Shown piece by piece: positions 45,425 through 64,000 of a stretch of DNA of 64,000 nucleotides. The notes under the pieces were generated by a model. That model did not search any database and was not told the DNA's origin. It saw only the letters and a program-made list of their open reading frames with translations. Every line of letters begins with the position of its first letter. The stretch's first letter is position 1. The stretch comes from a virus, in the IMG/VR virus record IMGVR_UViG_3300030390_001781, positions 5,356 to 69,355 of that record. One strand, written 5' to 3'. A program made the translations under genes and the position numbers.

Positions 45425-45430
45425 ATAAAT

Positions 45431-49624: not shown

Positions 49625-49627
49625 AAA

Positions 49628-49792
49628 CTAATGTTCGGTTTCCTTTATGTCTTTACAATTACTTTCAACTGATTTTGAATTTTTCTCACAGTTTTTAATT
49701 TTTACAATTGATACAACTGATATTCCTATAGTTGTTATTGCTATTGTAAAAAGTAGTAGAAATAAATTTCTTCTAAATTTAATCAATTCCAT
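49628..49792 (-). CDS. small membrane protein (54 aa; not in ORF track)
   Basis: MELIKFRRNLFLLLFTIAITTIGISVVSIVKIKNCEK...; overlaps the ThiF stop. Confidence 0.45.
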   Translation of the reverse strand: MELIKFRRNLFLLLFTIAITTIGISVVSIVKIKNCEKNSKSVESNCKDIKETEH

Positions 49793-50529: not shown

Positions 50530-51205
50530 TTAATACGTTTTTAATTTTTTTACCACTATCAATATGATTTTGACTTTGTTCTTTTTCAGTCATTTCATAA
50601 AATAAGTTTGTATCAAATTGTAAACCTGACTGCAAATGATTGTTGAAATTAGAGTTCCAAAATAAATCATGAAGATTAGTTTTAAGCATTCTTAAACTTT
50701 TAAAAACATAATCTCTTCCTTTTAAAGAATTTCCCCAACATATTTTACCATCGTCATAAACATTAGGAGTAGCTAATCTATAAAGTTTAGTTTCTAAATG
50801 TCTAAATTTCTTATAAGCATAAACATAAACTTCATTACCGTCATATACCCAAAAAGTACTAGGACAATAATAAATTTCATTTTTAGTACCCATAGAAATT
50901 ATTCTTTTACTAGGTTTGTCTGTCCACGCTATTAAAGTGTTTTCAGGAGAATTATCTAGCCAAAAAAATGTATTAGGCTTACAGTCTACATTAATTGCAA
51001 TGTTTGTACCTTTTTCAACAACTAAATCTTTTAAGAAATTAATTGTTTTTATGCTAGCAGGCTTACCTACTAGCATTTTACCATTTTTATCTATATCTCT
51101 TACTTCTACATAATCATTACCTTCATTATTATTATAAAAAATCATTGTTTTTTTAGGTAATAAATTTTGTATTGGTTTAAATACAGCGTTTTCTAAATCT
51201 GCCAT
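50501..51205 (-). CDS. PRTRC system protein B (prokaryotic E2 family D)
   Basis: YVEVRDIDKNGKM, TKLYRLATPNVYDDGKICWGN, FWNSNFNNH. Confidence 0.85.
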   Translation of the reverse strand: MADLENAVFKPIQNLLPKKTMIFYNNNEGNDYVEVRDIDKNGKMLVGKPASIKTINFLKDLVVEKGTNIAINVDCKPNTFFWLDNSPENTLIAWTDKPSKRIISMGTKNEIYYCPSTFWVYDGNEVYVYAYKKFRHLETKLYRLATPNVYDDGKICWGNSLKGRDYVFKSLRMLKTNLHDLFWNSNFNNHLQSGLQFDTNLFYEMTEKEQSQNHIDSGKKIKNVLNALNKKVSL

Positions 51206-52203
51206 AAGTAATCTATTAATTTTTTAATGTATTGAACTGTTTTAAATTGTTTTGTAGTATTTACAATTCCATCTAAAGAGTACTCTTTTTTATAAATTAG
51301 TCTTTCAAATTCATAGTTATTCCAGTAGTCGTTTAAATGATGCTCATACTCTTTAAAAATCTCATCATCTTTAGGTAAAAGACACATATAATTTTGAAAA
51401 GGAATAATTTCTTCGTTTTCAATATCTTCTATTTTTGTAACTAAATCAGAGAATTTAAAATCATTACAACTATAACTGTTGTAATGATTAATCATTTTTA
51501 ACATGATTTTTGCTTGAGGACAATGATTAGGATTTTCCATTATGTAATCGTAATGCCAATCATTATTCCCTTTAACAAATTCATTTATACACTGCTGTAA
51601 TTTTTTATCATATTCTGCAATGTAATCAGATTCATTTATTTCTAAATCTAAATCTTCATTTTCATCACTAAGACAGTATTCTAAAGTCATACGAAAAGTA
51701 ACATTAGTATTAATAGTTGGATAGTCATACTTAATAACTAAACTTCCAATTACATACCTTATTATCTTTTTAAGATTTTCGTCTTCTACATTATCAATAC
51801 AATCAAAAGTAAAACAATTGCCAACCTCTGGTTCCTCATGATATAAAATAATTGATTTACCGTCAAAAGTTATATTGTCATAATTGAAATATTCTTTTTC
51901 TGATTTTAATAAATCATTTAAATTAGAGTTTAAAAAGTTGATTAACTGTTCTTGGTTAAAATTTGAAATACATTTTAAGTCTATATCAGTATATTTGTGT
52001 AACACACTTAATAAAGACAATAGAAGATTCTCAATTTTATCAATTCTAAATTTGTCTAATACAGAAATTACAGGGTAAAACGTGAGGTTCCTTTCGGAAC
52101 CTTTATACGTTTTTCTTCTTTTGACTCGTTTAGGATTCTTGAGCACATTTTTGTATGTAACGCATTGTCCAACATAACGCATCTTTTCTTTTCTTTTTTG
52201 CAT
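51193..52203 (-). CDS. PRTRC system protein F-like
   Basis: Between protein C and protein B; basic N-terminus and acidic helical body as in Bacteroidota PRTRC loci. Confidence 0.5.
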   Translation of the reverse strand: MQKRKEKMRYVGQCVTYKNVLKNPKRVKRRKTYKGSERNLTFYPVISVLDKFRIDKIENLLLSLLSVLHKYTDIDLKCISNFNQEQLINFLNSNLNDLLKSEKEYFNYDNITFDGKSIILYHEEPEVGNCFTFDCIDNVEDENLKKIIRYVIGSLVIKYDYPTINTNVTFRMTLEYCLSDENEDLDLEINESDYIAEYDKKLQQCINEFVKGNNDWHYDYIMENPNHCPQAKIMLKMINHYNSYSCNDFKFSDLVTKIEDIENEEIIPFQNYMCLLPKDDEIFKEYEHHLNDYWNNYEFERLIYKKEYSLDGIVNTTKQFKTVQYIKKLIDYLWQI

Positions 52204-52271
52204 ATCTCTAATACTTTTTCAACTACCCTTTTAGGTAATGATTCGTAAACCTTGTTAATTAAACTTTTCAT
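52068..52271 (-). CDS. small basic protein overlapping the protein F start
   Basis: ATGA overlap with protein C stop; 136-nt overlap with the next ORF. Confidence 0.4.
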   Translation of the reverse strand: MKSLINKVYESLPKRVVEKVLEICKKEKKRCVMLDNALHTKMCSRILNESKEEKRIKVPKGTSRFTL

Positions 52272-52474
52272 CCTTTTGTTCCTATTTTAGTTTCAAACGT
52301 ATATTCAATTTTGTTGTTCACTACGTTAGGTTCAGATAAATGAGAGTTTACTAACTCTGGATAAGAGTTTGCATAAAAATCCAAAACTTGTTTTAAAGTA
52401 AAGTTTTGATTAGGATCTGAAAGCATAAGTTCTTTGAACTTAAATACTCTTTCTAGTCTTTCTGTTTTAGCCAT
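52268..52474 (-). CDS. PRTRC system protein C (prokaryotic ubiquitin-like)
   Basis: LERVFKF...LSDP...VLDFYANSYPEL...YTFETKIGTKG. Confidence 0.92.
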   Translation of the reverse strand: MAKTERLERVFKFKELMLSDPNQNFTLKQVLDFYANSYPELVNSHLSEPNVVNNKIEYTFETKIGTKG

Positions 52475-53075
52475 TAAAATTAATTTTTTTGTATCTATCT
52501 TCCATCATTGATTCAATTTGCTCAGGAGTTAATTGTTTAGATTCAATAACTTTAGGCTCTGCTGGTGCTGTGTAAGCTTGTTCTTGAAATAAACCAACAC
52601 TTTTGTTGTTGTCATCAAGTTTTTGCTTACAAGACTTAGCTAAGGAGCTTTCTGAGTCAATCTTTAAAGCTTCATCAATTAACTTTTGTGCTTCTTTAAA
52701 AGATTTTTCTTCAATTAGTTTATCAATACCTTCTAATTTCTTTTTCACTTTTTCGTTAAGAGTTTTTTGTTTTTTCTTCTTCTCTTCTGCCATTTTTGAC
52801 TCTGCTTTCATCTTTTCTGCCGAATTGATAAAATCATTCATGTTGGTTGTTACTTGTGAAATTTTAGGTAATTGATTTTCTAAAGATTTACTTAACTCTT
52901 CTAATACACTTTGAACATCTGTACCTGTAACAATAAACGGTACAATTAACTTCGCACTTTCGTCTGAAGTTTTTGGCTTTGGCAATACTGAAACAGTAAA
53001 TTCATCGCCAATTTTCTTGAATGCTACAACAACATCAATGTTGTCTAGCTTTTCTAAAATTTGTGTAAATATCAT
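52467..53075 (-). CDS. PRTRC system protein E
   Basis: MIFTQI...TVSVLPK...DESAKLIVPFIVTG; TPR-like helices; SVGLF clamp-binding-like motif. Confidence 0.85.
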   Translation of the reverse strand: MIFTQILEKLDNIDVVVAFKKIGDEFTVSVLPKPKTSDESAKLIVPFIVTGTDVQSVLEELSKSLENQLPKISQVTTNMNDFINSAEKMKAESKMAEEKKKKQKTLNEKVKKKLEGIDKLIEEKSFKEAQKLIDEALKIDSESSLAKSCKQKLDDNNKSVGLFQEQAYTAPAEPKVIESKQLTPEQIESMMEDRYKKINFNG

Positions 53076-53090
53076 AGTTTTAAATTTTAA

Positions 53091-53133
53091 TTATCAAGCC
53101 ACAATGGGATATACCCACTGTAGCTTTTGATAA
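53091..53133 (-). promoter_or_regulatory. motif stem-loop upstream of the PRTRC operon
   Basis: + ttatcaagccacaatggg-atata-cccactgtagcttttgataa. Confidence 0.75.
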
Positions 53134-54030
53134 TTAAGCGTAAACTAATTTAGAAATTTCACTAAATGCTTTGTTGTCTAATTTTTGACCTGAACCAATC
53201 ATTTTACTTTCCATTAAATCTTTATTTCCAGGTAAATCTCTATTAGTATAAGAGGTTACTCCTGAAAATAATCCCCATAAAGTTTGACCTTTTTGAGAAG
53301 ATTCTTCAGCAATACGAAGAGTTAAATTCTTTGCTTTGTTTATAGAATTTGTAGAATACTTTTCTCTCGCTTCTTCGCTAGTCATTTCTACATCAACACC
53401 TACTAAGCTTTTGATTAAGCGCTTAATATCGTTAGGTTTAGATTCTATATCATTCATTCTTGTAAAGGTTTCGTAAAGGCTTAATTCTGACTCTTTAAAG
53501 TCATCAATACCAAACATAATAGTGTCTATTTTTTCACGCATAGTTTTAGTATGTCTTACTTTATGAGCTAAATCTCTATAAGCTTTATGAAAAATATTAC
53601 TACAGCTAATAGTTTTGTTAGTCATTCCTAATCCTACTCCTGAACTACCATCATGACTATTTGTTATAGTTATGTATTTATCAATTTGATCGTTGTTAAG
53701 ACCAATATTCTTGATAGAGCCGCTATCAATTTGCATAAATACTTTACGACCATCTTGTAAAGCACCTCCTTTTACAATATCTCCACCTAATTTTGTGGCA
53801 ATTTCGTGAGTTAATTCTGCTAAATCCCAATTCTGAAATATTTCATAACTGTCTTTACAAGTCATAAACTCTTTGTCAATATCTGACCTACGAATAGATA
53901 AATAATTTGATTCAATCCCTTCTCTAGTGAAAAGATTTTCTTTTTTGACTTCCCAAAAAAGATTGTGTTGTTCTAACAAGTCCATTACCATTTGTCCTTT
54001 GTTTTCAACTTCGTTAATTTGATTTTCCAT
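53134..54030 (-). CDS. DUF932 family protein (phage/plasmid-like, TIGR03299)
   Basis: YEIFQN, GALQDGRKVF, TNSHDGS, CSN, RHT, TLWGLFSGVTSY. Confidence 0.88.
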   Translation of the reverse strand: MENQINEVENKGQMVMDLLEQHNLFWEVKKENLFTREGIESNYLSIRRSDIDKEFMTCKDSYEIFQNWDLAELTHEIATKLGGDIVKGGALQDGRKVFMQIDSGSIKNIGLNNDQIDKYITITNSHDGSSGVGLGMTNKTISCSNIFHKAYRDLAHKVRHTKTMREKIDTIMFGIDDFKESELSLYETFTRMNDIESKPNDIKRLIKSLVGVDVEMTSEEAREKYSTNSINKAKNLTLRIAEESSQKGQTLWGLFSGVTSYTNRDLPGNKDLMESKMIGSGQKLDNKAFSEISKLVYA

Positions 54031-54050
54031 AATAAATTAAATTTTAAATA

Positions 54051-54082
54051 ACCAAAACACAAGGGGAAACAAGTGTTTTGGT
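54051..54082 (-). promoter_or_regulatory. motif stem-loop upstream of DUF932
   Basis: + ACCAAAACACaaggggaaacaaGTGTTTTGGT. Confidence 0.7.
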
Positions 54083-54090
54083 AAAAAAAA

Positions 54091-54270
54091 CTAAATGATT
54101 TTTAAAATTAAATCCCTAATTAAAGATGAAACATGAATATTATTATCATTACAATAATCTTTAAGTTTTTTTGATTCAGACTTAGTTAAATAAGTAAGTG
54201 TTCTTTTACTTTTTTGTTCTTCTTCATCTATTTTTTGAAAACCTTTTAAACCTTTTTTAGTAAATCCCAT
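54091..54270 (-). CDS. ribbon-helix-helix-like DNA-binding protein (59 aa; not in ORF track)
   Basis: ...KRTLTYLTKSESKKLKDYCNDNNIHVSSLIRDLILKII* fits strand-helix-helix RHH pattern. Confidence 0.6.
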   Translation of the reverse strand: MGFTKKGLKGFQKIDEEEQKSKRTLTYLTKSESKKLKDYCNDNNIHVSSLIRDLILKII

Positions 54271-54271
54271 T

Positions 54272-54523
54272 TTAAATTATTTTTTTAGTTTTTTTATCAA
54301 ATCTAATTTCTTTTAGTATTTCATTATCAACACTAAATTTAAAAATGATTTCGTTATCAACTTCTCTTCTAGTTGTACATATTTGTGCAATTTCATGAGA
54401 GTTTTTTGCACTTGTACCTACCATAATAGTTTGTGTACTCGTGTCTTTTGCTCCAAAAGATTTATCTGACTTGTAAATACAAGCTTCTACTTTTGTCCAT
54501 ATTGGGTAACTTCTACTTGCCAT
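54272..54523 (-). CDS. hypothetical phage protein
   Basis: 83 aa, SRSYPIW..VEACIYKS. Confidence 0.55.
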   Translation of the reverse strand: MASRSYPIWTKVEACIYKSDKSFGAKDTSTQTIMVGTSAKNSHEIAQICTTRREVDNEIIFKFSVDNEILKEIRFDKKTKKII

Positions 54524-54525
54524 AA

Positions 54526-55386
54526 TTAAAATATATATCTGATTTTATTCCATTTAATAATGCTATCATGAAGTTTTATAAACGATTGAATATAATCACG
54601 TTTTAAATTGTGTTCATATCTAATGTTTGTACCTCCATAGCTAGAAACTTTGCTTTCTTGGTTTTCTGGTGTCCATAACAAACTTTCTCCTTTTTTGTCG
54701 TTTGTAACATTTTTATAATGTTTTTTTTCGTTGTGAGTTAAAAAGATTACTTCGCATTTTACTTGGTCTTTGTAATCAATATAATCATTACAAAGTTGAA
54801 ATAAATACTTATAGTCTTTTAACCAATCAGGATAAACAACAACAGGACTAAAGTTTAAATGAACATCATATCCTGCATCAATAAAAGCGTTTACAGCTTT
54901 TATTCTATCAATAATTTTAGGTGTGCCTGGCTCAAGATAATCTGAAATCTTTTGAGGCATTAAGCTAAATCTAATTCTTACTTTACCATTTGGGTTATAA
55001 TTAATAAACTCAATAGGTATAATTTTAGTGGCTAGAGTAGCCATAGCTATAGGATGATTTTTAAAGAAATCAAAAATCTTTTCCCAATCGTGATACTTTC
55101 TATGCAAAGCAAAATCTTCATTACAAGCTATATCGTATGTCATATAGCTTTCATGAGTTTGATTAGGTTTGCTAGCATTAGCTACAAAGTAAGAATGATT
55201 GTTAATTTCACTTAAAATCTGATTAACGTTTTTAGAAACAGTTAAACCTTTTTCTAAATGTCGTTTCATATAACAATAAGTACAGTCTAATAAACAACCA
55301 TAACCAAAAGAAGGAGTAATATAATCACTACTCCTTCCTGATTCTCTTATTGTCATAGTCTTTCGGTCTACATATCCAACTATCAT
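54526..55386 (-). CDS. spore photoproduct lyase-like radical SAM protein
   Basis: YGCLLDCTYCYM (CxxxCxxC), ATK, RIRFSLMP, RIKAVN..IDAGYDVHLNFSPV. Confidence 0.82.
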   Translation of the reverse strand: MIVGYVDRKTMTIRESGRSSDYITPSFGYGCLLDCTYCYMKRHLEKGLTVSKNVNQILSEINNHSYFVANASKPNQTHESYMTYDIACNEDFALHRKYHDWEKIFDFFKNHPIAMATLATKIIPIEFINYNPNGKVRIRFSLMPQKISDYLEPGTPKIIDRIKAVNAFIDAGYDVHLNFSPVVVYPDWLKDYKYLFQLCNDYIDYKDQVKCEVIFLTHNEKKHYKNVTNDKKGESLLWTPENQESKVSSYGGTNIRYEHNLKRDYIQSFIKLHDSIIKWNKIRYIF

Positions 55387-55580
55387 TTTTTAGATAAAAC
55401 ATATTCATTATAACCTACTTGAAAAAATATTTTATCATATTTCCTAATAGCTGTTCCATATTGATTACGGTATTTATAATAAAACCTTGGAACACCACCA
55501 ATTATCCATTCTTCACTATCTTGTGACGGAGAAATAGAATTTAAATATTCTTCGTATTCTTTTTTTGTTGTCTTTTTCAT
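55383..55580 (-). CDS. hypothetical protein
   Basis: 65 aa coupled ORF; YGTAIRKYDKIFFQVGYNEY. Confidence 0.55.
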   Translation of the reverse strand: MKKTTKKEYEEYLNSISPSQDSEEWIIGGVPRFYYKYRNQYGTAIRKYDKIFFQVGYNEYVLSKK

Positions 55581-55981
55581 ATCCCTTCCATTAATAAATG
55601 TTTTTTGTAATCTCTGTGTTCTTGTTCTTCGATTAAATTATTAATTGCATCACGACAAATATGAATACCTTTATTTTGAAAGTATTCAAGATATTTCAGT
55701 ACTCTATCTTCAAGTACCTCTATAGCTTGCTCATATCTTTTCTGAGAGCGTCTTTTACAAGGCAATAAAGTATCTCCAAAGCCTGTAAATGCAGTAAATG
55801 ATTCTATTTTAAAATCACCTTTGTCTTCAATTTCAACAGGAACTACGTTAACTCTATAACCTGTTTCTCTACGTTCATTTGTAGCCCAATTAATACTTTC
55901 GCTAGGTTTTAAGTAACTAATACTAAATTTAATTTTTACAGACGGCTTGTCTGTATCAACATACATTTTGTAATTTTCCAT
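55577..55981 (-). CDS. hypothetical protein
   Basis: 134 aa; preceded by a motif copy. Confidence 0.6.
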   Translation of the reverse strand: MENYKMYVDTDKPSVKIKFSISYLKPSESINWATNERRETGYRVNVVPVEIEDKGDFKIESFTAFTGFGDTLLPCKRRSQKRYEQAIEVLEDRVLKYLEYFQNKGIHICRDAINNLIEEQEHRDYKKHLLMEGI

Positions 55982-56004
55982 AATTTATTTTTTAAAGTTA
56001 AACA

Positions 56005-56036
56005 TCAAGGCACAACGGGTAATCCCATTGTGCCTT
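56005..56036 (-). promoter_or_regulatory. motif stem-loop
   Basis: + tcaaggcacaacggg-taat-cccattgtgcctt. Confidence 0.75.
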
Positions 56037-56110
56037 AACTGAACTTTAAAAAACTACTAATGCTTAACTAGTAATGCCTTAAATTCTCCATTAGCTTGGA
56101 GAGTTTTATT

Positions 56111-56278
56111 TTAATCTTTTAAAACTTTAAATTCTGTAGATATGTGATCTGAAGAATCTAAAATAATATCTTCATCATGATATCTTTGACTTAAGATAAC
56201 ATTAGCTTCGGCTTCACTATTAGCTTCTACTTCAATAACTTTAGATAAAGTTTCAATTATTTCTACACTAAATTTCAT
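56111..56278 (-). CDS. DpnD/PcfM-like small protein (55 aa; not in ORF track)
   Basis: MKFSVEIIETLSKVIEVEANSEAEANVILSQRYHDEDIILDSSDHISTEFKVLKD*. Confidence 0.65.
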   Translation of the reverse strand: MKFSVEIIETLSKVIEVEANSEAEANVILSQRYHDEDIILDSSDHISTEFKVLKD

Positions 56279-56609
56279 CTAACAAATTTGTTTGATAAAA
56301 TTTATTAACTAACGCTTTTACTTTTTGAGATTGCATCTTTTTAAGATAAGCACCTCTAAGTATAGTTACAAGTAATTTTTCAAGATTTTGTTTTCTGTCA
56401 TCACCTGTATGAAAAGATATCCATTTGTTTCCAGTATCAAATTCTTCATAGTTACTAATACATTCTTGAATAATTATATGTTCTTGAACTTCATAAGTAT
56501 TTATACCAAGAGCCATATCTAATTCACGAATAAATTCATCTACAATATCATCGATTTGCTTTTTACATCGATCTAAAATTGCTTTTTCTAAATCTTTTAC
56601 GTTATTCAT
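56268..56609 (-). CDS. hypothetical protein
   Basis: 113 aa ORF. Confidence 0.55.
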   Translation of the reverse strand: MNNVKDLEKAILDRCKKQIDDIVDEFIRELDMALGINTYEVQEHIIIQECISNYEEFDTGNKWISFHTGDDRKQNLEKLLVTILRGAYLKKMQSQKVKALVNKFYQTNLLDEI

Positions 56610-56614
56610 AATTA

Positions 56615-56821
56615 TTAATTTATACAGATTTCATCAGCTTCATCTAAATCATAAGCTGAACTTCTTGAATCACCAATCTTAGTTATCATAGTTGGACTAC
56701 TAATAGTGTAATGCCAATTATTACCTTCAGGATCGCTAGCGTAGACTACAGGTAGTTCTTTAGCTTCTGGATTAGCTTTTAAAAAGTCATTTAAGCCTTC
56801 TACGTATTCTTCTAAATTCAT
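56615..56821 (-). CDS. hypothetical protein
   Basis: 68 aa; LPVVYASDPEGN motif. Confidence 0.6.
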   Translation of the reverse strand: MNLEEYVEGLNDFLKANPEAKELPVVYASDPEGNNWHYTISSPTMITKIGDSRSSAYDLDEADEICIN

Positions 56822-57081
56822 AGCTTACCATTTTTAAGTTCTACAGAATCACATTCCTTATCAGCAAATTTCTTTAGTTTCCATAATAATCCATGATTAA
56901 TTATACTTTCAAAATAATTTGCTCCCATAAAAGGTGTTTTTCCTTTAGCTTCTAAAGCTTTAACATCTTCCTTGTGTTTTTCATTAGCAATTTTTAATCC
57001 TTCTATAAGAATAAAAACTTCTAATCCATTAAGTAAGTCATTTTGTTCTAAAACAACTTCTTCATTTTTTTCTTTTACCAT
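56818..57081 (-). CDS. hypothetical protein
   Basis: Start reassigned to MVKEK, 17 nt below a motif copy. Confidence 0.55.
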   Translation of the reverse strand: MVKEKNEEVVLEQNDLLNGLEVFILIEGLKIANEKHKEDVKALEAKGKTPFMGANYFESIINHGLLWKLKKFADKECDSVELKNGKL

Positions 57082-57148
57082 AATAAATAGTTTTAAATTC
57101 AAAACACAAAGGGAAAAAGGCAGTCTTTAGCATAAGAGGTGATAAAAT

Positions 57149-57182
57149 GTAGGGCAATAGACATATCTGCCTATCACCCTAC
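57149..57182 (-). terminator. RNA hairpin / intrinsic terminator
   Basis: Minus strand GTAGGGTGATAGGCA-GATA-TGTCTATTGCCCTAC: 15-bp stem fully paired only with G.U on this strand, followed by ATTTTAT. Confidence 0.65.
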
Positions 57183-57203
57183 TACTATTTACTATGGTTA
57201 AAA

Positions 57204-57491
57204 TTATTTATACTTTTCTAAATAAAAATTATATGACTTATCTCCATAAATCATATAATAATATTCATAATTGTAATGTTTCTTGAATTGACTGTGAGTT
57301 AGTTTTCCAGAAAAATATTTATATTCATTCACAAAAAACATAGAGAAAAACATACATAAAGTTGATACAATAAAAAATATAAAACTTATTGTATATTCTT
57401 CTATTAATAATGCTTTCCAACTACTTATGTGCAAAACAATAAATAATATAAATGCTGATATTGCTGTATATATTGAAAATTGCTTTTTCAT
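57204..57491 (-). CDS. small 2-TM membrane protein
   Basis: Two hydrophobic segments, Tyr-rich tail. Confidence 0.55.
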   Translation of the reverse strand: MKKQFSIYTAISAFILFIVLHISSWKALLIEEYTISFIFFIVSTLCMFFSMFFVNEYKYFSGKLTHSQFKKHYNYEYYYMIYGDKSYNFYLEKYK

Positions 57492-57808
57492 AATCTGTTT
57501 ATTGAAGGAATGTAAATATCCATGTTAACTACTTGTTTGCCGAATTTACTACAAGTACACATTAATTTATCTCCTTTGATAAATATTTTGTGTTTTAAAG
57601 GTATTCCTGTTGCTTTATGTGTCAAAGGCTTTCCTGTCTTTGAACTTATCATATAGAAACCGTTTACCTTTCCCTTGTCGTTAAATATCAAAGATAGGTT
57701 GTGTTTAAAGTACTCCGTTAGAAGTCTATTGAATAGAACACCTGCTCTTTTTCTATCAAAAGATACCTTAATATCTTTTAGTTCTCTTAAATCTTTTAAT
57801 GTTTCCAT
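57488..57808 (-). CDS. hypothetical basic protein
   Basis: Start taken at METLK (TTTACTATG leader). Confidence 0.55.
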   Translation of the reverse strand: METLKDLRELKDIKVSFDRKRAGVLFNRLLTEYFKHNLSLIFNDKGKVNGFYMISSKTGKPLTHKATGIPLKHKIFIKGDKLMCTCSKFGKQVVNMDIYIPSINRL

Positions 57809-57857
57809 AGTAAATAGAATTAAATGTTTAAATAAAGAATTAACCAAAATTTTGTAA

Positions 57858-58139
57858 TCAAGAGATATTATCATCGTGTTTTTCTTTTACAATTCTAATA
57901 AACTCTTTCATTTCATCAGTATCGTCAATGTTTTCAGCATGTTTGAAAATAAGATTCAACAAATCTCTTCTAAAATTGTGTACACCTATTTGTTTAGTGT
58001 AAAAATCTCTTAAAAATTCTGCATTGACTATACTATCAGCCCTAAGATTATTAATCTCTGAGTTGATTTCTTCATCTTGAGTTTCTAACCTTGTTAGAAG
58101 GTCTTTAAGCTCAAAATAATGCTTTATAAATAACTTCAT
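57858..58139 (-). CDS. hypothetical coiled-coil protein
   Basis: Start taken at MKLFIK, 16 nt below a motif copy. Confidence 0.55.
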   Translation of the reverse strand: MKLFIKHYFELKDLLTRLETQDEEINSEINNLRADSIVNAEFLRDFYTKQIGVHNFRRDLLNLIFKHAENIDDTDEMKEFIRIVKEKHDDNIS

Positions 58140-58154
58140 AGTAAATAGTTTAAA

Positions 58155-58192
58155 ATCAAAGCACAAAGGGTAATAATCCTTTGCACTTTGAT
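58155..58192 (-). promoter_or_regulatory. motif stem-loop
   Basis: + atcaaagcacaaagggtaataatcctttgcactttgat. Confidence 0.75.
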
Positions 58193-58211
58193 ACAATCCA
58201 CAATTAAACAA

Positions 58212-59489
58212 TTAAATGTTGTAGCTATTTACCTTCTTTGCGTAATTAATAAGCAAGTTTATTGCCTCTAATTGAAATTCAGGTGTACAATCTCTGACAT
58301 CATATTCTAAATGAATATATTCTTCAATGATTGTATTTACTACATCATGTAAACCTCTTTCAAGTCCTTTTTCTGACAATACTATTTGATTATCCTTGTG
58401 ATTAGCATAACCTAATATTCTTGAATTAGAAAAATTACCTACAGCAATATCAAATTTGTTAGGCAATTTACATTCAGCTAAGAAATTTTCAGCCTCATGT
58501 ATAGTATTCATTTGAAGTTGACTAGGTTTAGATACAACTCTGTACTGAATACCTCTATCTTTATCAAATCTTAAATCTGCTAACTTTTCATTACTAGTTA
58601 ACTTAGAACTAAGAAAAGAATAAAGACTTTCTGGAAGAAAAGTATATCCTGTTACTTCGTTTACACTTAACAAAGATATTAAACCTGTTGGTTGTACATT
58701 AATCTCGTTACAAACTTCTATAAACTCTTTTGAAGGGTTAACTCCATAAGGTCTTTCAAATTCGTACTCTAAACTGCTAGAGATAAGATTAGTAAGAATA
58801 TTTTTAATAATATTTTTGTCTTTACACGTTAATATTATTTTCCATATTTCTCTAGTTACTTCCCAATTATAAACACAAACTCTTGACTCGTTTATACTAA
58901 CCTTTGGTATGTCATAGTTATATACAGATTCTTTGTTGGTTTCGTAACATTTGATTCCTTTTCTGTAAATAACAGTACTACCTTGTTTTTCATAAATCTT
59001 ACCATGTTCGTTTTCATAAATAACATGGTCTTCATCAGCAAAATACAAACTAAAGTCTTTAGTAACCATGTCTATAAGTTCATCAGTCAAACTAATATAA
59101 ATATGAGTTTTACCTTTAACTCCTTTGATTTTAGTAGTGCAATTTAACTCTGCATTACCTTCGTCTAAAGCATTAGAATAAAACTCTCTAATAGCTTGCC
59201 ATAGCTTCCATTCTTTACCCATTTTAGTAGTTATAGAAGTAGCTTCATTGTTAATGTGAATTACATTAAAGACTTGATCACTAAATGTTTCTTCTTTAGT
59301 CGATACAGATATTTCTTTCTCGCCTGAAAAAATTCTTACTGTGTGATTGTTTCTTAATAAATACGCTAAAGCATACTTATTGCCCGTTCCGAACTGTCCG
59401 ATAGTTTCATCGCCAGTCTTAGTAGATGCACCTACAAGAGTAAAAGCCTTGTAGTTAATCTCGTTGTCATTAGAAATTCTTAAATACAT
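58212..59489 (-). CDS. GHKL (HSP90/MORC-like) ATPase domain protein
   Basis: GASTK...IGQFGTGNKYA (G2 box) and AIREFYSNALDE (N box); C-terminal TIIEEYIH. Confidence 0.7.
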   Translation of the reverse strand: MYLRISNDNEINYKAFTLVGASTKTGDETIGQFGTGNKYALAYLLRNNHTVRIFSGEKEISVSTKEETFSDQVFNVIHINNEATSITTKMGKEWKLWQAIREFYSNALDEGNAELNCTTKIKGVKGKTHIYISLTDELIDMVTKDFSLYFADEDHVIYENEHGKIYEKQGSTVIYRKGIKCYETNKESVYNYDIPKVSINESRVCVYNWEVTREIWKIILTCKDKNIIKNILTNLISSSLEYEFERPYGVNPSKEFIEVCNEINVQPTGLISLLSVNEVTGYTFLPESLYSFLSSKLTSNEKLADLRFDKDRGIQYRVVSKPSQLQMNTIHEAENFLAECKLPNKFDIAVGNFSNSRILGYANHKDNQIVLSEKGLERGLHDVVNTIIEEYIHLEYDVRDCTPEFQLEAINLLINYAKKVNSYNI

Positions 59490-59635
59490 AATAAATAAAT
59501 TTAAAGTTCAAAACACAAAGGGAAACAAAAAGGCTAAATGTTAATTTTAGACTAAAAAATGCAGTCCATAACACCGTAGGTTATAATGCAAGTTAGTGGG
59601 TTATTTGACAAAAAAAAAGTAATAATTTTAAGTAA

Positions 59636-59675
59636 ATTCAAAGTACAAAGGGTGTTAACTCTTTGTACTTTGAAT
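59636..59675 (-). promoter_or_regulatory. motif stem-loop
   Basis: + attcaaagtacaaagggt-gtta-actctttgtactttgaat. Confidence 0.75.
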
Positions 59676-59676
59676 A

Positions 59677-59898
59677 TTAATAATCTAAGTTTTGATACCA
59701 TTGATATTCAATGTCTTCTTGTTCTTGACGCATTTGTTCTTCAAAGAAAGCATTTTCTATGTTACCTAATTTTTTCTTTTTAGGTTTACTTGAAGGTATT
59801 TGTGCATATTTTGCTAAATACTTAATTAAACGTATTAGTTGTTTTCTAGAACAACCGTCTAAGTTGAATTTCTGTTCATCAATTTGTAAAATCTCCAT
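59677..59898 (-). CDS. hypothetical early protein
   Basis: 73 aa, flanked by motif copies on both sides. Confidence 0.65.
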   Translation of the reverse strand: MEILQIDEQKFNLDGCSRKQLIRLIKYLAKYAQIPSSKPKKKKLGNIENAFFEEQMRQEQEDIEYQWYQNLDY

Positions 59899-59912
59899 AA
59901 TAATATAGTTTT

Positions 59913-59946
59913 AAAGTTCATAGCACATTGGGTGTGCTATAAACTT
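59913..59946 (-). promoter_or_regulatory. motif stem-loop
   Basis: + aaagttcatagcaca-ttggg-tgtgctataaactt. Confidence 0.8.
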
Positions 59947-59950
59947 AATA

Positions 59951-60241
59951 TTATTTTAACTCTTTTTTAGTTAGTTCCCATGAGTTAAATAATACAAATA
60001 ATGGTATAGTTCTTTTTAAGATTAATATTTCATCATCTGTTGGTTTGTTAGATTCATCTATATTGCCGTCATTACCTAATGGAGAATAATAGAATTTAAT
60101 TACCCTTTTGTTGATAATTGCAATACCGAAAAAGTGAGGTATTTTATAGATTTTATCATGAAGATGTTTATCAAGAATAAACATTTCACAACCGTCTGCT
60201 TTGATTTCTAACTTTTGCGTTTTGTAAATTTCAATTTGCAT
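59951..60241 (-). CDS. hypothetical early protein
   Basis: 96 aa, flanked by motif copies. Confidence 0.65.
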   Translation of the reverse strand: MQIEIYKTQKLEIKADGCEMFILDKHLHDKIYKIPHFFGIAIINKRVIKFYYSPLGNDGNIDESNKPTDDEILILKRTIPLFVLFNSWELTKKELK

Positions 60242-60254
60242 AATATTTTAGTTT

Positions 60255-60294
60255 AAAGTTCAAAGCACAACGGGTGTTGTGCCTTGAATACTTT
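60255..60294 (-). promoter_or_regulatory. motif stem-loop
   Basis: + aaagttcaaagcacaac-gggt-gttgtgccttgaatacttt. Confidence 0.8.
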
Positions 60295-60296
60295 TA

Positions 60297-61040
60297 TTAC
60301 ATTGCTGATTTGATAATCGCAGAGCCAATTTTACCTTGACTTCTAGGTGCTAGTTTTACCATAACTGTTGGGTGTTCTTGGTAAACTTCTGTAAGTGCTG
60401 TTCTGAATCTAGAAACTAAGTCTTCTATTTTAAGACGGTTTTCTAAAGTCCATACTTTCACTTCTACGCATTCATTAGCAAGATAATCTTTGCCTTTGAC
60501 TTCAAATACTAAACCTTCTTGGTCTGTATAGTCTTCTAACTTCATGTATTTGTTTAGAATTAAATCAAATGGAGAAGTCCATCTTGAACTATACTTTTCA
60601 GCAATTACTTTAAGAGTTTTAATGTAATCTCTTACAGTACTATAAGAAGCGTATGCTACTTGATTACCTCTAAGTAAAATAGAGATATTATCAGGTAATC
60701 TTACGAAGCTATCATCGCCTACAGTATCGCAAATCTTGTATAAGACTTGTTTATTATCATTGATTTGAGAATAAGAATGATACTGTATTTTTACAAGTGC
60801 GTCTGCGTCTTTTGGTACAAACCAATTTACGGCAGTTCTACTTGGCTCAGAAGCCAGTTCTTTGAAGTCATCTGCATAATCATTAAACATAGCGTTGATT
60901 ATATCTTCGGCTACATTTATATGCGTTGACGTTGTAGGAACTGTAGCATTAGCTTCTACATTTGTTTTTACGCTGTTGTTTTCAGCGTTTGCTTCAGCAA
61001 CTCCTTGAGTTACTTTTGCATTTTCAGTAATATTTGTCAT
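60297..61040 (-). CDS. hypothetical early protein
   Basis: Start taken at MTNITEN; flanked by motif copies. Confidence 0.65.
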   Translation of the reverse strand: MTNITENAKVTQGVAEANAENNSVKTNVEANATVPTTSTHINVAEDIINAMFNDYADDFKELASEPSRTAVNWFVPKDADALVKIQYHSYSQINDNKQVLYKICDTVGDDSFVRLPDNISILLRGNQVAYASYSTVRDYIKTLKVIAEKYSSRWTSPFDLILNKYMKLEDYTDQEGLVFEVKGKDYLANECVEVKVWTLENRLKIEDLVSRFRTALTEVYQEHPTVMVKLAPRSQGKIGSAIIKSAM

Positions 61041-61041
61041 A

Positions 61042-61070
61042 TCAAGGCACAAAGGGTGAATGTGCCTTGA
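61042..61070 (-). promoter_or_regulatory. motif stem-loop abutting a start codon
   Basis: + TCAAGGCACAaagggtgaaTGTGCCTTGA. Confidence 0.75.
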
Positions 61071-61116
61071 AAAGAAAACGAAATATCTGTACCAAATAAC
61101 AAAGGGAAATAAAGTC

Positions 61117-61200
61117 TTAGCAAAGATTAACATACATACTAAATGCTAATAAGATGGCTGTTAGTACAATGATTAATGCAAATCTGTAAATGTTATACAT
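61117..61200 (-). CDS. tiny single-TM peptide (27 aa)
   Basis: MYNIYRFALIIVLTAILLAFSMYVNLC*; ATG 20 nt below a motif copy. Confidence 0.5.
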   Translation of the reverse strand: MYNIYRFALIIVLTAILLAFSMYVNLC

Positions 61201-61215
61201 AACTATAAAGTTTAT

Positions 61216-61251
61216 AAAGTTCAAGACACATTGGGTGTGTCTTGATACTTT
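61216..61251 (-). promoter_or_regulatory. motif stem-loop
   Basis: + aaagtTCAAGACACA-ttggg-TGTGTCTTGAtacttt. Confidence 0.85.
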
Positions 61252-61472
61252 TAGCATACTTGTATTTTTACTTGTTGATACGTTAGTGTATTGCAATCTA
61301 TCCAATCGTGATAGTCATTTTTACTGTTGTCTATTACAGTTACGTTGTTTTTTGTATCAACAATTAATGTTAAATCGAAGTAGATTTCTGTTACGTCTTC
61401 TGCATAACTTGCTACTTTTGGTTTAACTTCTGTTTTAGGGTTTCTAAGTACTGCTTTGTTTACAAATGTCAT
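61251..61472 (-). CDS. hypothetical early protein
   Basis: 73 aa, flanked by motif copies. Confidence 0.65.
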   Translation of the reverse strand: MTFVNKAVLRNPKTEVKPKVASYAEDVTEIYFDLTLIVDTKNNVTVIDNSKNDYHDWIDCNTLTYQQVKIQVC

Positions 61473-61485
61473 AATAAATATATTT

Positions 61486-61529
61486 AAAGTTCAAGACGCA
61501 TTGGGAAACCCTAACACGCCTTATACTTT
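61486..61529 (-). promoter_or_regulatory. motif stem-loop
   Basis: + aaagttcaagacgcattggg-aaa-ccctaacacgccttatacttt. Confidence 0.7.
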
Positions 61530-61695
61530 ATGATTTAAGTGTAAACCATATAAATGCACCTGTTGACACACAAAGTGCTGTTACACAAGCTAAGAATTGA
61601 TAATGATTTAGATTGAAACGAGATATTGTCATTAATGTGTAAATACTAATTAATGCAAGTATAAGCGTTACAATTTTTTTGATAAAAATCAGCAT
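61528..61695 (-). CDS. small 2-TM membrane protein
   Basis: MLIFIKKIVTLILALISIYTLM...; flanked by motif copies. Confidence 0.6.
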   Translation of the reverse strand: MLIFIKKIVTLILALISIYTLMTISRFNLNHYQFLACVTALCVSTGAFIWFTLKS

Positions 61696-61710
61696 AATAT
61701 ATAATTTTAT

Positions 61711-61759
61711 AAAGTTCAAGACACAACGGGAAAAATAACAACTCGTTATGTCTTTAACT
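61711..61759 (-). promoter_or_regulatory. motif stem-loop
   Basis: + aaagttcaagacacaacggg-aaaaataacaa-ctcgttatgtctttaact. Confidence 0.75.
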
Positions 61760-61761
61760 AT

Positions 61762-61938
61762 TTATTTAGATGAAGTTAATTGAGTGAACGCCAGTTCACG
61801 ATCGCATTGTTCTGCAAATTGAGCAATTACTAAATCATCAATTTCTTTTTGTAGTTGTGGTTTACATGAAGTACAACCAAAGTTTGGCAAGTCTTTATCT
61901 TCATTTGGAAGATAGTTTGCTGTTTTACAATCACACAT
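61762..61938 (-). CDS. small Cys-rich early protein (58 aa; not in ORF track)
   Basis: MCDCKTANYLPNEDKDLPNFGCTSCKPQLQKEIDDLVIAQFAEQCDRELAFTQLTSSK*; ATG 18 nt below a motif copy. Confidence 0.65.
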   Translation of the reverse strand: MCDCKTANYLPNEDKDLPNFGCTSCKPQLQKEIDDLVIAQFAEQCDRELAFTQLTSSK

Positions 61939-61951
61939 AATTAATAGTTTA

Positions 61952-61982
61952 AAAGTTCAAGCCACATTGGGCTTGATACTTT
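61952..61982 (-). promoter_or_regulatory. motif stem-loop
   Basis: + aaagtTCAAGCC-acattg-GGCTTGAtacttt. Confidence 0.85.
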
Positions 61983-61984
61983 AA

Positions 61985-62263
61985 TTAGAAAGGCATATCA
62001 TCAGGAATTGGTTGACTATTTTCTGTTGATAGTTCTTGATAATACTCTTCATCAAATTGAAATGATTGTGCTGAATAAATTTCTTTGTCGATATTATTAT
62101 CGGCACAATACTTATCATATCGCTGAAGTAACGCTTTGTGTTCGCATATCATTTGTAAACATTCTGCGATACATTCTTCTTCAGCACATATTTTATTTTC
62201 AATATGAAAATCTTTTTCCATTTGCTCAATTGTTGTTTGAGCATACATTGTTAATTTTAGCAT
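61985..62263 (-). CDS. acidic early protein ending PDDMPF
   Basis: 92 aa, flanked by motif copies. Confidence 0.65.
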   Translation of the reverse strand: MLKLTMYAQTTIEQMEKDFHIENKICAEEECIAECLQMICEHKALLQRYDKYCADNNIDKEIYSAQSFQFDEEYYQELSTENSQPIPDDMPF

Positions 62264-62277
62264 GACTATAAGTTTAT

Positions 62278-62307
62278 AAGTTCAAGCCACATTGGGCTTG
62301 ATACTTT
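62278..62307 (-). promoter_or_regulatory. motif stem-loop (identical 30-mer to the 61953 copy)
   Basis: + aagttcaagccacattgggcttgatacttt. Confidence 0.85.
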
Positions 62308-62504
62308 TAGAATGGTAAATCTTCATCATCAATTTCGATTTCATCAATCGTAAGATTGTCATAATGATAGTCGTGATTAGATTCACAACAAACGAAAGTT
62401 TGTTCTTCCTCGAACATTTCAGGTGGTCCATATTGCACAAGACCGTCTGAGTCTAAATATTCAACGAAACCTAAATTCATAGCAATTCTTTCTCTGTTAG
62501 TCAT
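62307..62504 (-). CDS. acidic early protein ending DEDLPF
   Basis: 65 aa, flanked by motif copies. Confidence 0.65.
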   Translation of the reverse strand: MTNRERIAMNLGFVEYLDSDGLVQYGPPEMFEEEQTFVCCESNHDYHYDNLTIDEIEIDDEDLPF

Positions 62505-62518
62505 AATATAAAGTTTAT

Positions 62519-62556
62519 AAGTTCAATACACATTGGGAAATGTGTATTGATACTTT
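62519..62556 (-). promoter_or_regulatory. motif stem-loop
   Basis: + aagtTCAATACACATT-ggga-AATGTGTATTGAtacttt. Confidence 0.85.
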
Positions 62557-62557
62557 G

Positions 62558-62800
62558 TTAGAATGGATTGTTATAATCGTAAACCATTCTACACTTGCAT
62601 TTATGCGAGAAATGATACATTTCATTTTGTGCTATGCGTAAATTTTCTTGAAGATTTACACTTGTTTCTATACAAGTGTTATCATCATTATGAAACGCAT
62701 AACGTAATGTTGCTACTTCTGCAATAGACATAGCAAGTTCTGTTATTGATTCTTTAGTTAACCAATTAGCATTTTTCGCATTGAAATCTTTGTTAGTCAT
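62558..62800 (-). CDS. early protein ending YNNPF
   Basis: Start taken at MTNKDF, 19 nt below a motif copy. Confidence 0.6.
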   Translation of the reverse strand: MTNKDFNAKNANWLTKESITELAMSIAEVATLRYAFHNDDNTCIETSVNLQENLRIAQNEMYHFSHKCKCRMVYDYNNPF

Positions 62801-62814
62801 AATATATAAGTTAT

Positions 62815-62848
62815 AAAGTTCAATGCACATTGGGTGCATTGATACTTT
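62815..62848 (-). promoter_or_regulatory. motif stem-loop
   Basis: + aaagtTCAATGCAC-attgg-GTGCATTGAtacttt. Confidence 0.85.
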
Positions 62849-62849
62849 A

Positions 62850-63149
62850 TTACAACATACCTAATTGAATGTAATGATGAAGACAATTGAAATCTTTGAT
62901 ACCTTCATAACTATCATAGTTAAGGTCAATAACAAGTTTTACAAATCTGTCTAAATCATTACAATCGTAGCCACAAATTTCAGCTACGTCTACAAGTATG
63001 AAGATATTATCAAGATGTTCTTGATAATTGTCAAATGATAACGATACAACTTTGCTAGATATTAGCAATGGTTTTATACGTAAGTTCATATCTAAGCTTT
63101 TAGACTGAACTGCCTCAACAAATTCCTCGTAAGGATAATTACCTTTCAT
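62850..63149 (-). CDS. hypothetical early protein
   Basis: 99 aa, flanked by motif copies. Confidence 0.65.
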   Translation of the reverse strand: MKGNYPYEEFVEAVQSKSLDMNLRIKPLLISSKVVSLSFDNYQEHLDNIFILVDVAEICGYDCNDLDRFVKLVIDLNYDSYEGIKDFNCLHHYIQLGML

Positions 63150-63161
63150 AATAAATGATTT

Positions 63162-63200
63162 AAAGTTCAGAGCACATTGGGAAATGTACTCTGAAACTTT
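63162..63200 (-). promoter_or_regulatory. motif stem-loop
   Basis: + aaagttcagagcacatt-ggga-aatgtactctgaaacttt. Confidence 0.85.
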
Positions 63201-63448
63201 TAGAATGGTAAGTCATCAAATTCATCGGCTACTAAAGTAGTTTCTAATCTATGTTTACCATGATTAGGTTTAATGTTTGATAACTTAAAGTTAAATTTGT
63301 TAGGTTCATGAGAATACTCTAGAAGCAACATACTTAACGATTGGTTTAACCAATCTATCTTACCTGTACAATCATCACATTCCATACATGGATATGTAAC
63401 ATTATCATCAGGACAATACTGTCCATGTTTACAATCAATAAAACACAT
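63200..63448 (-). CDS. Cys-rich early protein ending FDDLPF
   Basis: Start taken at MCFIDCKHGQYC...CMECDDC. Confidence 0.6.
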   Translation of the reverse strand: MCFIDCKHGQYCPDDNVTYPCMECDDCTGKIDWLNQSLSMLLLEYSHEPNKFNFKLSNIKPNHGKHRLETTLVADEFDDLPF

Positions 63449-63470
63449 AATATATAAGTTTAAGTTAATA

Positions 63471-63500
63471 TTCAATGCACATAGGGAAATGTACATTGAA
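63471..63500 (-). promoter_or_regulatory. motif stem-loop
   Basis: + ttcaatgcacat-agggaa-atgtacattgaa. Confidence 0.8.
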
Positions 63501-63506
63501 CTTTGT

Positions 63507-63697: not shown

Positions 63698-63728
63698 TTC
63701 AAAGCACATTGGGTTACCAATTACTTGA
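63698..63728 (-). promoter_or_regulatory. motif copy with imperfect stem-loop
   Basis: + ttcaaagcacattgg-gtta-ccaattacttga. Confidence 0.7.
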
Positions 63729-64000
63729 CATTGTCAAATAAAATGACTAACTTCTTCGCTCTACTACGTTACTAAACGTTTTTTTGTCTTACACAAACGA
63801 TACAACCAAACATTGGAAATGTATATCGTACAAACGTAGGAAGATACATAGCTCGCTAGGAAGACATTGTGAAACGCTATCGAACATAGAGAATTGCTGA
63901 ATGTCAATCAAACCACATTGGGAAACAATAACAACAGAGAACTTAAGGGGGGGTATAAAGAAAAATTATTTTTTTAATTTTTATTTTATTAACAGACCTC

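Follow-up and report, generated by a model that had tools for sequence, protein, structure and literature searches.

PeSLs are composite terminator/promoter motifs that stand between small early open reading frames (ORFs) of T4-like phages (PMC4122927; PMC2839356). The Thermus phage P23-45 is described as carrying a sigma-less two-barrel RNA polymerase in its virion and as having a conserved AT-rich pre-early promoter (10.1101/2022.12.01.518664). According to a 2023 review, transcription of both the regulatory and the replication module of crAss-like phages is driven by their virion polymerases without need of the host enzyme (PMC10136315). This Crassvirales review does not use the word 'promoter', and in the searchable literature we found no description of a start signal for an injected crAss-like polymerase. 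Here we report on a repeated box that in most copies forms one arm of a hairpin, located at the gene junctions of an uncultured marine phage. The window, i.e. the whole stretch of 64,000 nucleotides (nt) that was analysed, comprises bases 5356–69355 of a 69,355-bp virus record (IMG/VR record IMGVR_UViG_3300030390_001781) rated 100% complete, and represents most of a complete 69-kb crAss-like genome; positions given below are those of the window. The structural arm of this genome runs on the plus strand from 1 to ~41 kb, and the early/replication arm on the minus strand from ~64 kb down to 41 kb. With a probability of roughly one half, we propose that the junctions of the early arm are composite elements, which combine a DNA promoter box, probably read by the virion polymerase, with an overlapping hairpin at the RNA 3′ end of the preceding gene.

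The box reads CCCnnTGTGnnTTGA on the minus strand, within the extended consensus TTtCCCwwTGTGyyTTGA-AyTTTAAA. The pattern TTCAAnnCACAnnGGG on the plus strand, equal to CCCnnTGTGnnTTGAA on the minus strand, has 25 matches at up to two mismatches against 3.0 +/- 1.7 in 100 shuffles, none of which attained 25. At up to one mismatch CCCnnTGTGnnTTGA is found 22 times in the window, on the minus strand only, between 49604 and 63922, and a degenerate copy at 45394 comes in addition. Across the complete genome there are 21 forward and 0 reverse matches of the pattern, with 0 for a reversed-pattern control. Every transcription unit of the early/replication arm starts with a copy, and the structural arm is without a box. 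Related phages were collected by an exact-pattern scan of IMG/VR, which returned 11 contigs, six of them with 2–5 exact matches; at up to one mismatch, arrays are present in seven. The duplicate contigs L013 (nearly the same as L014) and L009 (nearly the same as L011) were dropped and five related contigs kept, giving six compared phage sequences with 76 box copies and 61 hairpins. The reversed pattern has 0 matches in the array-bearing contigs. In a complete relative of 70.7 kb, all 15 forward copies lie within a 17-kb arm. The record of this relative begins at another point than that of the phage studied here.

The linear sequence of the box is strictly conserved. The CCC triplet and the positions G7, T13 and G14 do not vary in any of 75 distinct copies, a set chosen at up to one mismatch, and downstream the consensus continues into A-y-TTTAAA. 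An ATG-led ORF follows within 30 nt in 68 copies, 44 of which have the ATG 17–19 nt past the TTGA; the 8 further copies (of 76) have no such ORF. In a gene of 247 amino acids (aa), the ATG lies 1 nt past the TTGA in 5/5 phages, a later ATG being out of frame. The distance of 17–19 nt leaves no space for a −10 element plus a leader. Host-type promoters were considered and rejected, as neither pattern exceeds expectation: sigma-70-like sites number 113 versus 113.7 in shuffles, and Bacteroidota-type sites (TTTG-N17-21-TAnnTTTG) 4 versus 5.65.

In 18 of the 22 window copies the motif serves as the 3′ arm of a hairpin (at 49604 in a different register), in agreement with a preliminary description of this DNA, which had reported a repeated motif with stem-loops on the minus strand. 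The copies at 63908, 63699, 59508 and 57099 are without a hairpin. Upstream bases pair with TGTGnnTTGA, and often AAAGU pairs with ACUUU as well. Stems comprise about 10–28 pairs, and loops vary between 4 and 12 nt in the window and between 3 and 17 nt across the relatives around a fixed motif spacing, as had also been noted. All seven compensating stems listed in the preliminary description are present: GACACA/TGTGTC at 61221, TACACA/TGTGTA at 62523, TGCAC/GTGCA at 62820, TAGCACA/TGTGCTA at 59918, GGCACA/TGTGCC at 61042 and 56005, AGTACA/TGTACT at 59638, and AAACAC/GTGTTT at 54052. Where the TGTG itself is altered (TGTT, TGTA, TGCG, TGCT), the 5′ arm compensates. Of the 61 hairpins, 22 have a single unpaired base of the 5′ arm at the same place, flanked by the partners of A15 and A16, and 34 have none there, so that the bulge described as conserved belongs to a part of the copies only.

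The two arms evolve unequally. Single-sided changes of the core number 24 on the 5′ arm versus 1 on the box arm, and 15 of the 76 copies have the box without the motif hairpin. Both arms of a pure RNA stem would be free to drift; in this element one of them is frozen. Together with the invariant positions, these counts bear out the earlier idea of two overlapping constraints, one on a linear sequence and one on a hairpin. The CACA...TGTG arms resemble CRP/FNR-type operator half-sites, and a dimeric DNA-binding protein might read the inverted repeat in the duplex. Such an operator is scarcely credible, however, given a spacer of 3–17 nt between the arms, arms that covary at the free positions without any constant half-site, a conservation as unequal as 24:1, and the presence of one arm only in 15/76 copies.

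From 14 window copies we built a covariance model, which recovered 46 copies on the sense strand at E ≤ 1.5e-5; these come from six sources. In this alignment 85.3% of the cells are paired versus 76.6% after shuffling (0/500 shuffles as high), and sliding the partner leaves only 27–45% paired. Changes on both sides occur in 11 of 15 pairs, and the covariation score is 0.360 versus 0.199 (0/500 shuffles). Covariation, which the preliminary description had proposed as a check, is strong. The inner helix holds 376 Watson-Crick, 42 G.T, 0 A.C and 10 other cells. Since the alignment is model-fitted and leans towards structure, the counts were redone on all 76 box copies, with or without a hairpin, by a hairpin finder in which G.T and A.C receive equal scores; the core then comprises 560 Watson-Crick, 61 G.T, 2 A.C and 14 other pairs.

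Several results indicate that the fold is selected on the coding (minus) strand. The 17 canonical window hairpins display 16 G.T versus 4 A.C on this strand (binomial p = 0.012). The G.T cells fall in exactly the nine copies named in the preliminary description; the opposite cases all face C1–C3 as stated there, but number 4 instead of about 3. The fixed arm TGTGnnTTG consists of G and T at its fixed positions, so any transition on the free arm necessarily yields G.T on the minus strand; a comparison of transitions with transversions is hence the fair test. Background substitutions between the phages are transitions in 48% (1903/3984), and the single-sided 5′-arm core changes in orthologue sets comprise 19 G.T, 1 A.C and 4 of transversion type (19/24, p = 0.002). 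RNAalifold folds the sense alignment at −7.05 kcal/mol with 8 pairs, 6 of them with double changes, and finds no structure in the exact reverse complement of the same alignment. Single RNA sequences fold on average at −17.5 kcal/mol in sense versus −14.9 kcal/mol in antisense orientation, the sense strand being more stable in 41 of 61 hairpins. The claims of a coding-strand fold and of unequal strand stability agree with these data, including the ratio of 19:4 between wobble and transversion-type changes.

The strand also bears on a promoter of the N4 type, i.e. a hairpin of the template (plus) strand that is recognised by its shape. As in N4 (PMC13492108), the genome has ~70 kb, encodes a giant virion protein and has its early genes at one end, and inverted repeats do lie upstream of genes. 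However, the wobble and the transition/transversion patterns are those of the other strand, and the reverse complement lacks a consensus fold. There are at least 22 copies across 19 kb (45.4–63.9 kb) instead of three, with stems of 10–22 pairs and loops of 3–17 nt; the hairpin is absent from 15/76 copies, while the box sequence itself is invariant; and the polymerase (see below) is gp66-like with two barrels, not T7-like. We regard this explanation as highly improbable, and coding-strand selection upholds the argument of the preliminary description against a simple template-strand hairpin promoter.

The hairpin appears to belong to the upstream gene. Its 5′ arm starts at the preceding stop codon or no more than a few bases from it. 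Of the 76 copies, 61 have a hairpin, and for 50 of these an ORF stops within 50 nt, while for 11 there is no such stop; of the hairpin-less copies, 1 has the ORF and 14 do not (Fisher p = 8e-8 for copies that are related and not independent). The hairpin-less window copies sit in the terminal repeat, before the first gene, and behind two non-coding stretches, and the copies at the head of the region are hairpin-less in 5/5 relatives, too. The same 27-aa downstream gene bears four different stems in four phages, and in L014 the stem at 59918 and its upstream gene are followed by another gene. This data suggests that the stem travels with its upstream neighbour when genes are reshuffled. As the stem accompanies the upstream gene in reordered phages, the exchange point would lie inside the shared box. 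A quantitative trend of shuffling is weak (mean 34-mer identity 0.64 versus 0.57), and an ortholog-pair test of which of its two neighbouring genes the stem goes with suffers from noise, as repeated boxes inflate local similarity; it was used via the explicit examples only.

Box junctions coincide with sites where close relatives have gained, lost or replaced genes. Recombination might be the primary function of the element, as an attC-like folded site or as a dedicated cassette junction: the relatives differ in gene content, and the break points lie at the box, 22/61 hairpins have a bulged base, and PeSLs have been associated with shuffling (PMC4122927). We consider this very unlikely. A search for a tyrosine recombinase (PF00589) gave 0 matches in the complete genome, with a control positive in 14/14 genomes; the element keeps a strict orientation and a strict distance to the ATG; the box is retained where the hairpin is absent; and homologous recombination at a shared box of 20–25 bp suffices for shuffling. 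The preliminary description had left two alternatives. Its attC-like site is not supported, given the missing tyrosine recombinase, the fixed ATG register and a bulge in 22/61 hairpins only, whereas its other option, a promoter overlapped by an RNA hairpin that serves termination or processing, is, judged from sequence, the best explanation.

The preference for the coding strand may alternatively reflect a DNA hairpin within the promoter. Here, the extruded non-template strand would lock itself, the template strand, weakened by A.C mismatches, would stay single-stranded, and the box would be presented to a polymerase that prefers single-stranded DNA. Besides the selection on the coding strand, for which DNA folding parameters favour the same strand, such a mechanism could draw on the properties of known enzymes. 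The gp66 polymerase of phage phi14:2 is described as efficient on single-stranded or denatured DNA, inactive on double-stranded M13 DNA and weak on native phi14:2 DNA (10.1101/2020.03.07.982082), and the N4 virion polymerase depends on an extruded hairpin (PMC13492108). We nevertheless think it rather unlikely. The head-of-region copies, presumed to be the first promoters, are hairpin-less in the window and in 5/5 relatives. A hairpin intrinsic to the promoter would not predict that 14/15 hairpin-less copies are those where no gene ends upstream, and the stem moves together with the upstream gene. Cruciform extrusion would, from general DNA physics, be disfavoured by bulges, wobbles and loops as long as 17 nt. 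If true, the box would be the long-sought promoter of a crAss-type two-barrel virion polymerase and the hairpin a part of initiation, mirroring the N4 solution but of independent evolutionary origin.

Based on this dataset, we hypothesize the following mechanism for the composite junction. In duplex DNA, CCCnnTGTGnnTTGA would act as a phage-specific promoter, most likely read by the polymerase contained in a 3360-aa protein of the structural arm. Transcription probably begins a few bases past the TTGA, giving 5′ leaders of 15–22 nt; the mRNA of the 247-aa gene would be leaderless, and its ATG, if the box is a promoter, places the start within a base or two of the TTGA. The box would then span about −16 to −2, with A-y-UUUAAA beginning the leader. 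In RNA that reads in from the upstream gene, the bases past the stop codon would pair with TGTGnnTTGA, and the resulting hairpin, of 10–22 pairs, would end or stabilise the upstream transcript. Transcripts started at the box would lack both arms of the inner stem, hence the hairpin could form only in RNA coming from upstream, at the 3′ end of that RNA. Each junction may be regarded as a unit that stops or stabilises one transcript and then restarts. The box arm would be frozen by the polymerase, leaving nn and the 5′ arm alone to evolve, which would account for the covariation and for the G.U wobbles on the coding strand. As a sequence shared by all junctions, the box could in addition serve as crossover point for cassette swaps between related phages.

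A function in RNA only would dispense with the promoter: one long polycistronic RNA in which box and hairpin form a site of processing, of translation control or for an RNA-binding protein. The fold on the coding strand and the fixed register to the ATG would fit, and phage T7 has intergenic RNase III hairpins between its genes. However, TGTGnnTTGA is paired in the hairpin copies and single-stranded in 15/76, and a single RNA-binding protein is unlikely to recognise both. Boxes also stand in the terminal repeat and ahead of the first gene, positions with nothing to process, and no other promoter-like repeat is seen at the head of the arm. The ATG of the 247-aa gene, 1 nt past the box in 5/5 phages, violates a translation signal of fixed distance. 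There is no matching Rfam family either (Rfam 15, 0 covariance-model matches at E ≤ 1 over 40000–64000, both strands). Hence, we judge this explanation to be unlikely.

A number of points weigh against the composite junction. The six compared sequences are close relatives, and the counts are not independent. Most of the G.U bias on the coding strand is forced by the G/T-rich fixed arm, so the bias that the preliminary description had pointed out exists on the minus strand but was overstated; outside the core it vanishes (G.T 17 versus A.C 14 in the 76 copies), and the free positions 10–11 display only 7 G.T to 1 A.C (p = 0.07). On the sense strand 20 of 61 hairpins fold no better, and DNA parameters favour this strand as well (−10.8 versus −9.9; 38/61), so RNA and coding-strand DNA are indistinguishable from sequence. 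No ORF of at least 40 aa ends within 50 nt upstream of 11/61 hairpin copies, several of which follow shorter ORFs, and the conserved hairpin copy at 59638 heads no ORF. The tail after the stem (A-y-UUUAAA) is not a canonical U-tract, and a simple terminator scan flags 1 motif hairpin on the sense strand versus 5 on the plus strand. The stems themselves are stable (mean −17.5 kcal/mol). Finally, early transcripts of phi14:2 are described as having no common upstream motif, and its enzyme as preferring single-stranded DNA (10.1101/2020.03.07.982082). As this is the only studied enzyme of the family, a sequence-specific duplex promoter would be unprecedented there.

The candidate reader of the box is encoded by the 3360-aa ORF at 18263–28345 on the plus strand. 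Whole-protein searches (Pfam, PHROGs, PDB) remained blank for this ORF; a profile search alone succeeded. The C-terminal 1101 aa have 64 relatives at E ≤ 0.001, of which 37 at E ≤ 1e-30, many with 2500–4800 aa. A profile of 19 sequences of this C-terminal part matches one PDB entry only, 6VR4 (6VR4_A, E = 1.4e-11), the crAss-like virion RNA polymerase gp66. The alignment places R-x-P...SDADHDGDK opposite R-I-P...GSDFDIDK of gp66, with DADHDGD (aa 2587) facing DFDID. By this homology, the ORF is assigned a crAss-type (phi14:2 gp66-like) two-barrel RNA polymerase with its catalytic double-psi barrel. The motif DADHDGD differs from the DFDxD of described crAss-like polymerases, and relatives reach up to 5920 aa. 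The N-terminal two-thirds have no match to a family, PHROG or PDB entry. In tblastn, the polymerase core finds only the uncultured crAss-like phage cr8_1 (31% identity). A contig with a 44%-identical polymerase (L021/G006) carries the structural arm only and is thus silent on the box. No sigma region 2 was found in the genome; a search for a T7-like polymerase with PF00940 gave no match, but its control matched nowhere either, so this result is uninformative. Putatively, the polymerase is packaged in the virion and injected, as its gene position in the structural arm would suggest. The regulatory and replication modules that the review assigns to such enzymes correspond to the arm in which the box occurs, and we infer that this polymerase is the most likely reader of the box.

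The individual copies, all on the minus strand, are described from the right end of the window. The ends of the record share a repeat of ~153 bp that is identical except for one mismatch in a G-run (window 63848–64000 versus genome bases 1–153). Either this is a genuine terminal repeat, or the genome is circular or permuted and its ends overlap in the assembly. A hairpin-less box (63908–63922) lies inside this repeat, 79 nt from the right end of the record, directed into the early arm and with no credible ORF after it. The first early gene (ATG 63674) has a box without motif hairpin at 63699–63713 and a conserved palindrome, TTGACAnTGTCAA, upstream. This palindrome, TTGACA-n-TGTCAA at 63727–63745, lies ~15 nt upstream of the box, may fold with 9 pairs and a 3-nt loop, and occurs once per genome, each of the five relatives having retained it; an operator or a separate first-start signal are possible roles.

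Four hairpins with a box follow at 63467–63504 (box 63472–63486, ATG 63448), 63162–63200 (box 63167–63181, ATG 63149), 62813–62850 (box 62820–62834, ATG 62800) and 62519–62555 (box 62523–62537, ATG 62504). In the second, the 5′ arm begins from the stop codon of a gene whose product ends in ...DDLPF. Short hairpins are found at 62275–62309 (box 62282–62296, ATG 62263), with two C of the CCC paired, and at 61949–61984 (box 61957–61971, ATG 61938). Four consecutive small early proteins encoded at 61985–63448 have the C-termini ...DDLPF, ...NNPF, ...EDLPF and ...DDMPF, as confirmed by translation; these endings resemble the acidic C-terminal tip of the bacterial single-stranded DNA-binding protein.

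Next come a hairpin with a long loop of 11 nt at 61708–61764 (box 61716–61730, ATG 61695), a hairpin with 4 G.U and the TGCG variant, matched by a compensating 5′ arm, at 61485–61530 (box 61491–61505, ATG 61472), and a hairpin at 61213–61253 (box 61221–61235) before a 27-aa ORF (ATG 61200). The hairpin of the 247-aa gene (ATG 61040, 1 nt past the TTGA) extends over 61034–61078 (box 61042–61056). A degenerate box, CCCTTTGTTATTTGG, at 61092–61106, 36 nt upstream of this copy and also present in relatives, may be a decayed or weak copy. Further hairpins with a box are located at 60255–60294 (box 60260–60274, ATG 60241) and 59911–59948 (box 59918–59932, ATG 59898); in a relative, the latter stem and its upstream gene recur with another downstream gene.

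A near-perfect hairpin of 21 pairs at 59633–59679 (box 59638–59652, TGTA variant) is followed by no ORF; downstream come a run of nine T (T9) and ~115 nt without coding capacity. The 425-aa gene (ATG 59489) comes next, with a box without hairpin at 59508–59522. A hairpin with box at 58155–58192 (box 58156–58170) precedes ATG 58139, and a box without motif hairpin at 57099–57113 precedes ATG 57081, with a separate 15-pair hairpin upstream at 57149–57182. Two stretches between box copies are non-coding on the minus strand, 59523–59637 and 57114–57203. The first comes after the ORF-less box copy and its T9 run, a layout retained in three relatives; the second holds the strong hairpin at 57149–57182 with alternative pairings (fold z-score of the stretch −2.6). 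They may represent small RNAs or separate terminators.

The leftward part of the arm comprises larger units. A hairpin at 56003–56041 (box 56005–56019) heads an operon starting from ATG 55981, and a hairpin with a 12-nt loop and the TTGG variant at 54051–54082 (box 54052–54066) precedes a DUF932 gene (ATG 54030). The hairpin at 53087–53137 (box 53094–53108) belongs to a PRTRC-like operon (ATG 53075). At 49599–49660 the box (49604–49618, TTGG variant) lies in a hairpin of different register before the DnaB operon (ATG 49582). The degenerate copy at 45384–45434 (box 45394–45408) has 2 mismatches and the TGCT variant with a compensating 5′ arm, and heads the last minus-strand unit.

Regarding gene content, the structural arm encodes the portal, the major head protein and large virion proteins in addition to the 3360-aa ORF. 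The minus strand carries tiny early genes, the GHKL-like 425-aa gene, a spore-photoproduct-lyase-like gene and DUF932, followed by a PRTRC-like ThiF/E2 operon, DnaB, an AAA_24 ATPase, a PDDEXK nuclease and DnaJ. The PRTRC-like set at 49783–53075 comprises a ThiF E1-like protein, a prokaryotic E2 of family D and PRTRC protein E, with the box copy at its head. The spore-photoproduct-lyase-like radical-SAM gene lies at 54526–55386, and the DnaJ-domain gene at 42124–42723. Among the ORFs scanned no DNA polymerase or primase was recognised, and no tRNAs were found. The early region has no match of near identity among GenBank phages, and tblastn of the 425-aa gene returned only distant matches (about 25%) in unrelated phages. 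DNA of the source phage is present in marine metagenomes. There is no RNA run among the 24 listed runs with the phage, and four RNA runs of the same samples contain next to no sampled words.

Few known phages are as abundant as the crAss-like ones. This clade supplies a sharp consensus of 15–23 nt, with 22 natural variants in the window and 76 copies in the six sequences. Natural versions with the box only, with box plus hairpin and with compensatory changes make the promoter question directly testable. If true, the composite junction would represent a frozen promoter half overlapping an evolving RNA stem, i.e. two constraints from two molecules on the same bases, and would illustrate how the early genes of a phage can be shuffled as cassettes by way of a shared junction.

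In comparison with known systems, phi14:2 gp66 (6VR4) shares homology across the catalytic double-psi barrel and a gene position in the structural arm. Its genome has presumably ~100 kb, the 69 kb found here being smaller. The protein described here has 3360 aa versus about 2180–2194 aa, and a strong box stands at every unit, whereas early transcripts of phi14:2 are described as lacking a detectable common upstream motif. Integron attC sites are imperfect inverted repeats at cassette ends that fold on one strand and have unpaired bases. The element reported here differs from them by the lack of an integron integrase or tyrosine recombinase match, a different core, an inconsistent bulge (22/61) and the fixed register to the next ATG.

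The N4 promoters P1–P3 resemble the present locus in a virion-carried polymerase (here deduced from gene position), in early genes at one end, in inverted repeats near the starts (here putative), and in an enzyme family described as poor on plain duplex DNA (PMC13492108). Unlike the present locus, N4 has three promoters and a T7-like enzyme, which recognises, mainly by its shape, a hairpin extruded by supercoiling and leading on into single-stranded template with the start site. Here, there are at least 22 copies with a sequence-invariant box, long variable loops, apparent coding-strand selection and a two-barrel enzyme. P23-45 provides a precedent, as its virion two-barrel polymerase initiates at a short linear motif that is strongly conserved and recurs ahead of the pre-early genes. 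The motif is a different one, the polymerase is fused to a tape-measure protein, and an overlapping hairpin is not described there.

PeSLs are the closest described system. Their promoter is of the host sigma-70 type (−35, N17, −10) with the stem-loop beside it, whereas the box reported here is phage-specific, fits neither sigma-70-like nor Bacteroidota-like patterns, has its upstream half as the 3′ arm of the hairpin, and occurs in a crAss-like phage with its own polymerase. In both systems, a unit made of a repeated stem-loop and a promoter-like sequence (with the promoter and terminator roles here predicted) stands between small, mostly unknown early genes; in both, the stem varies while the promoter is kept, and the unit is tied to modular gene shuffling between close relatives.

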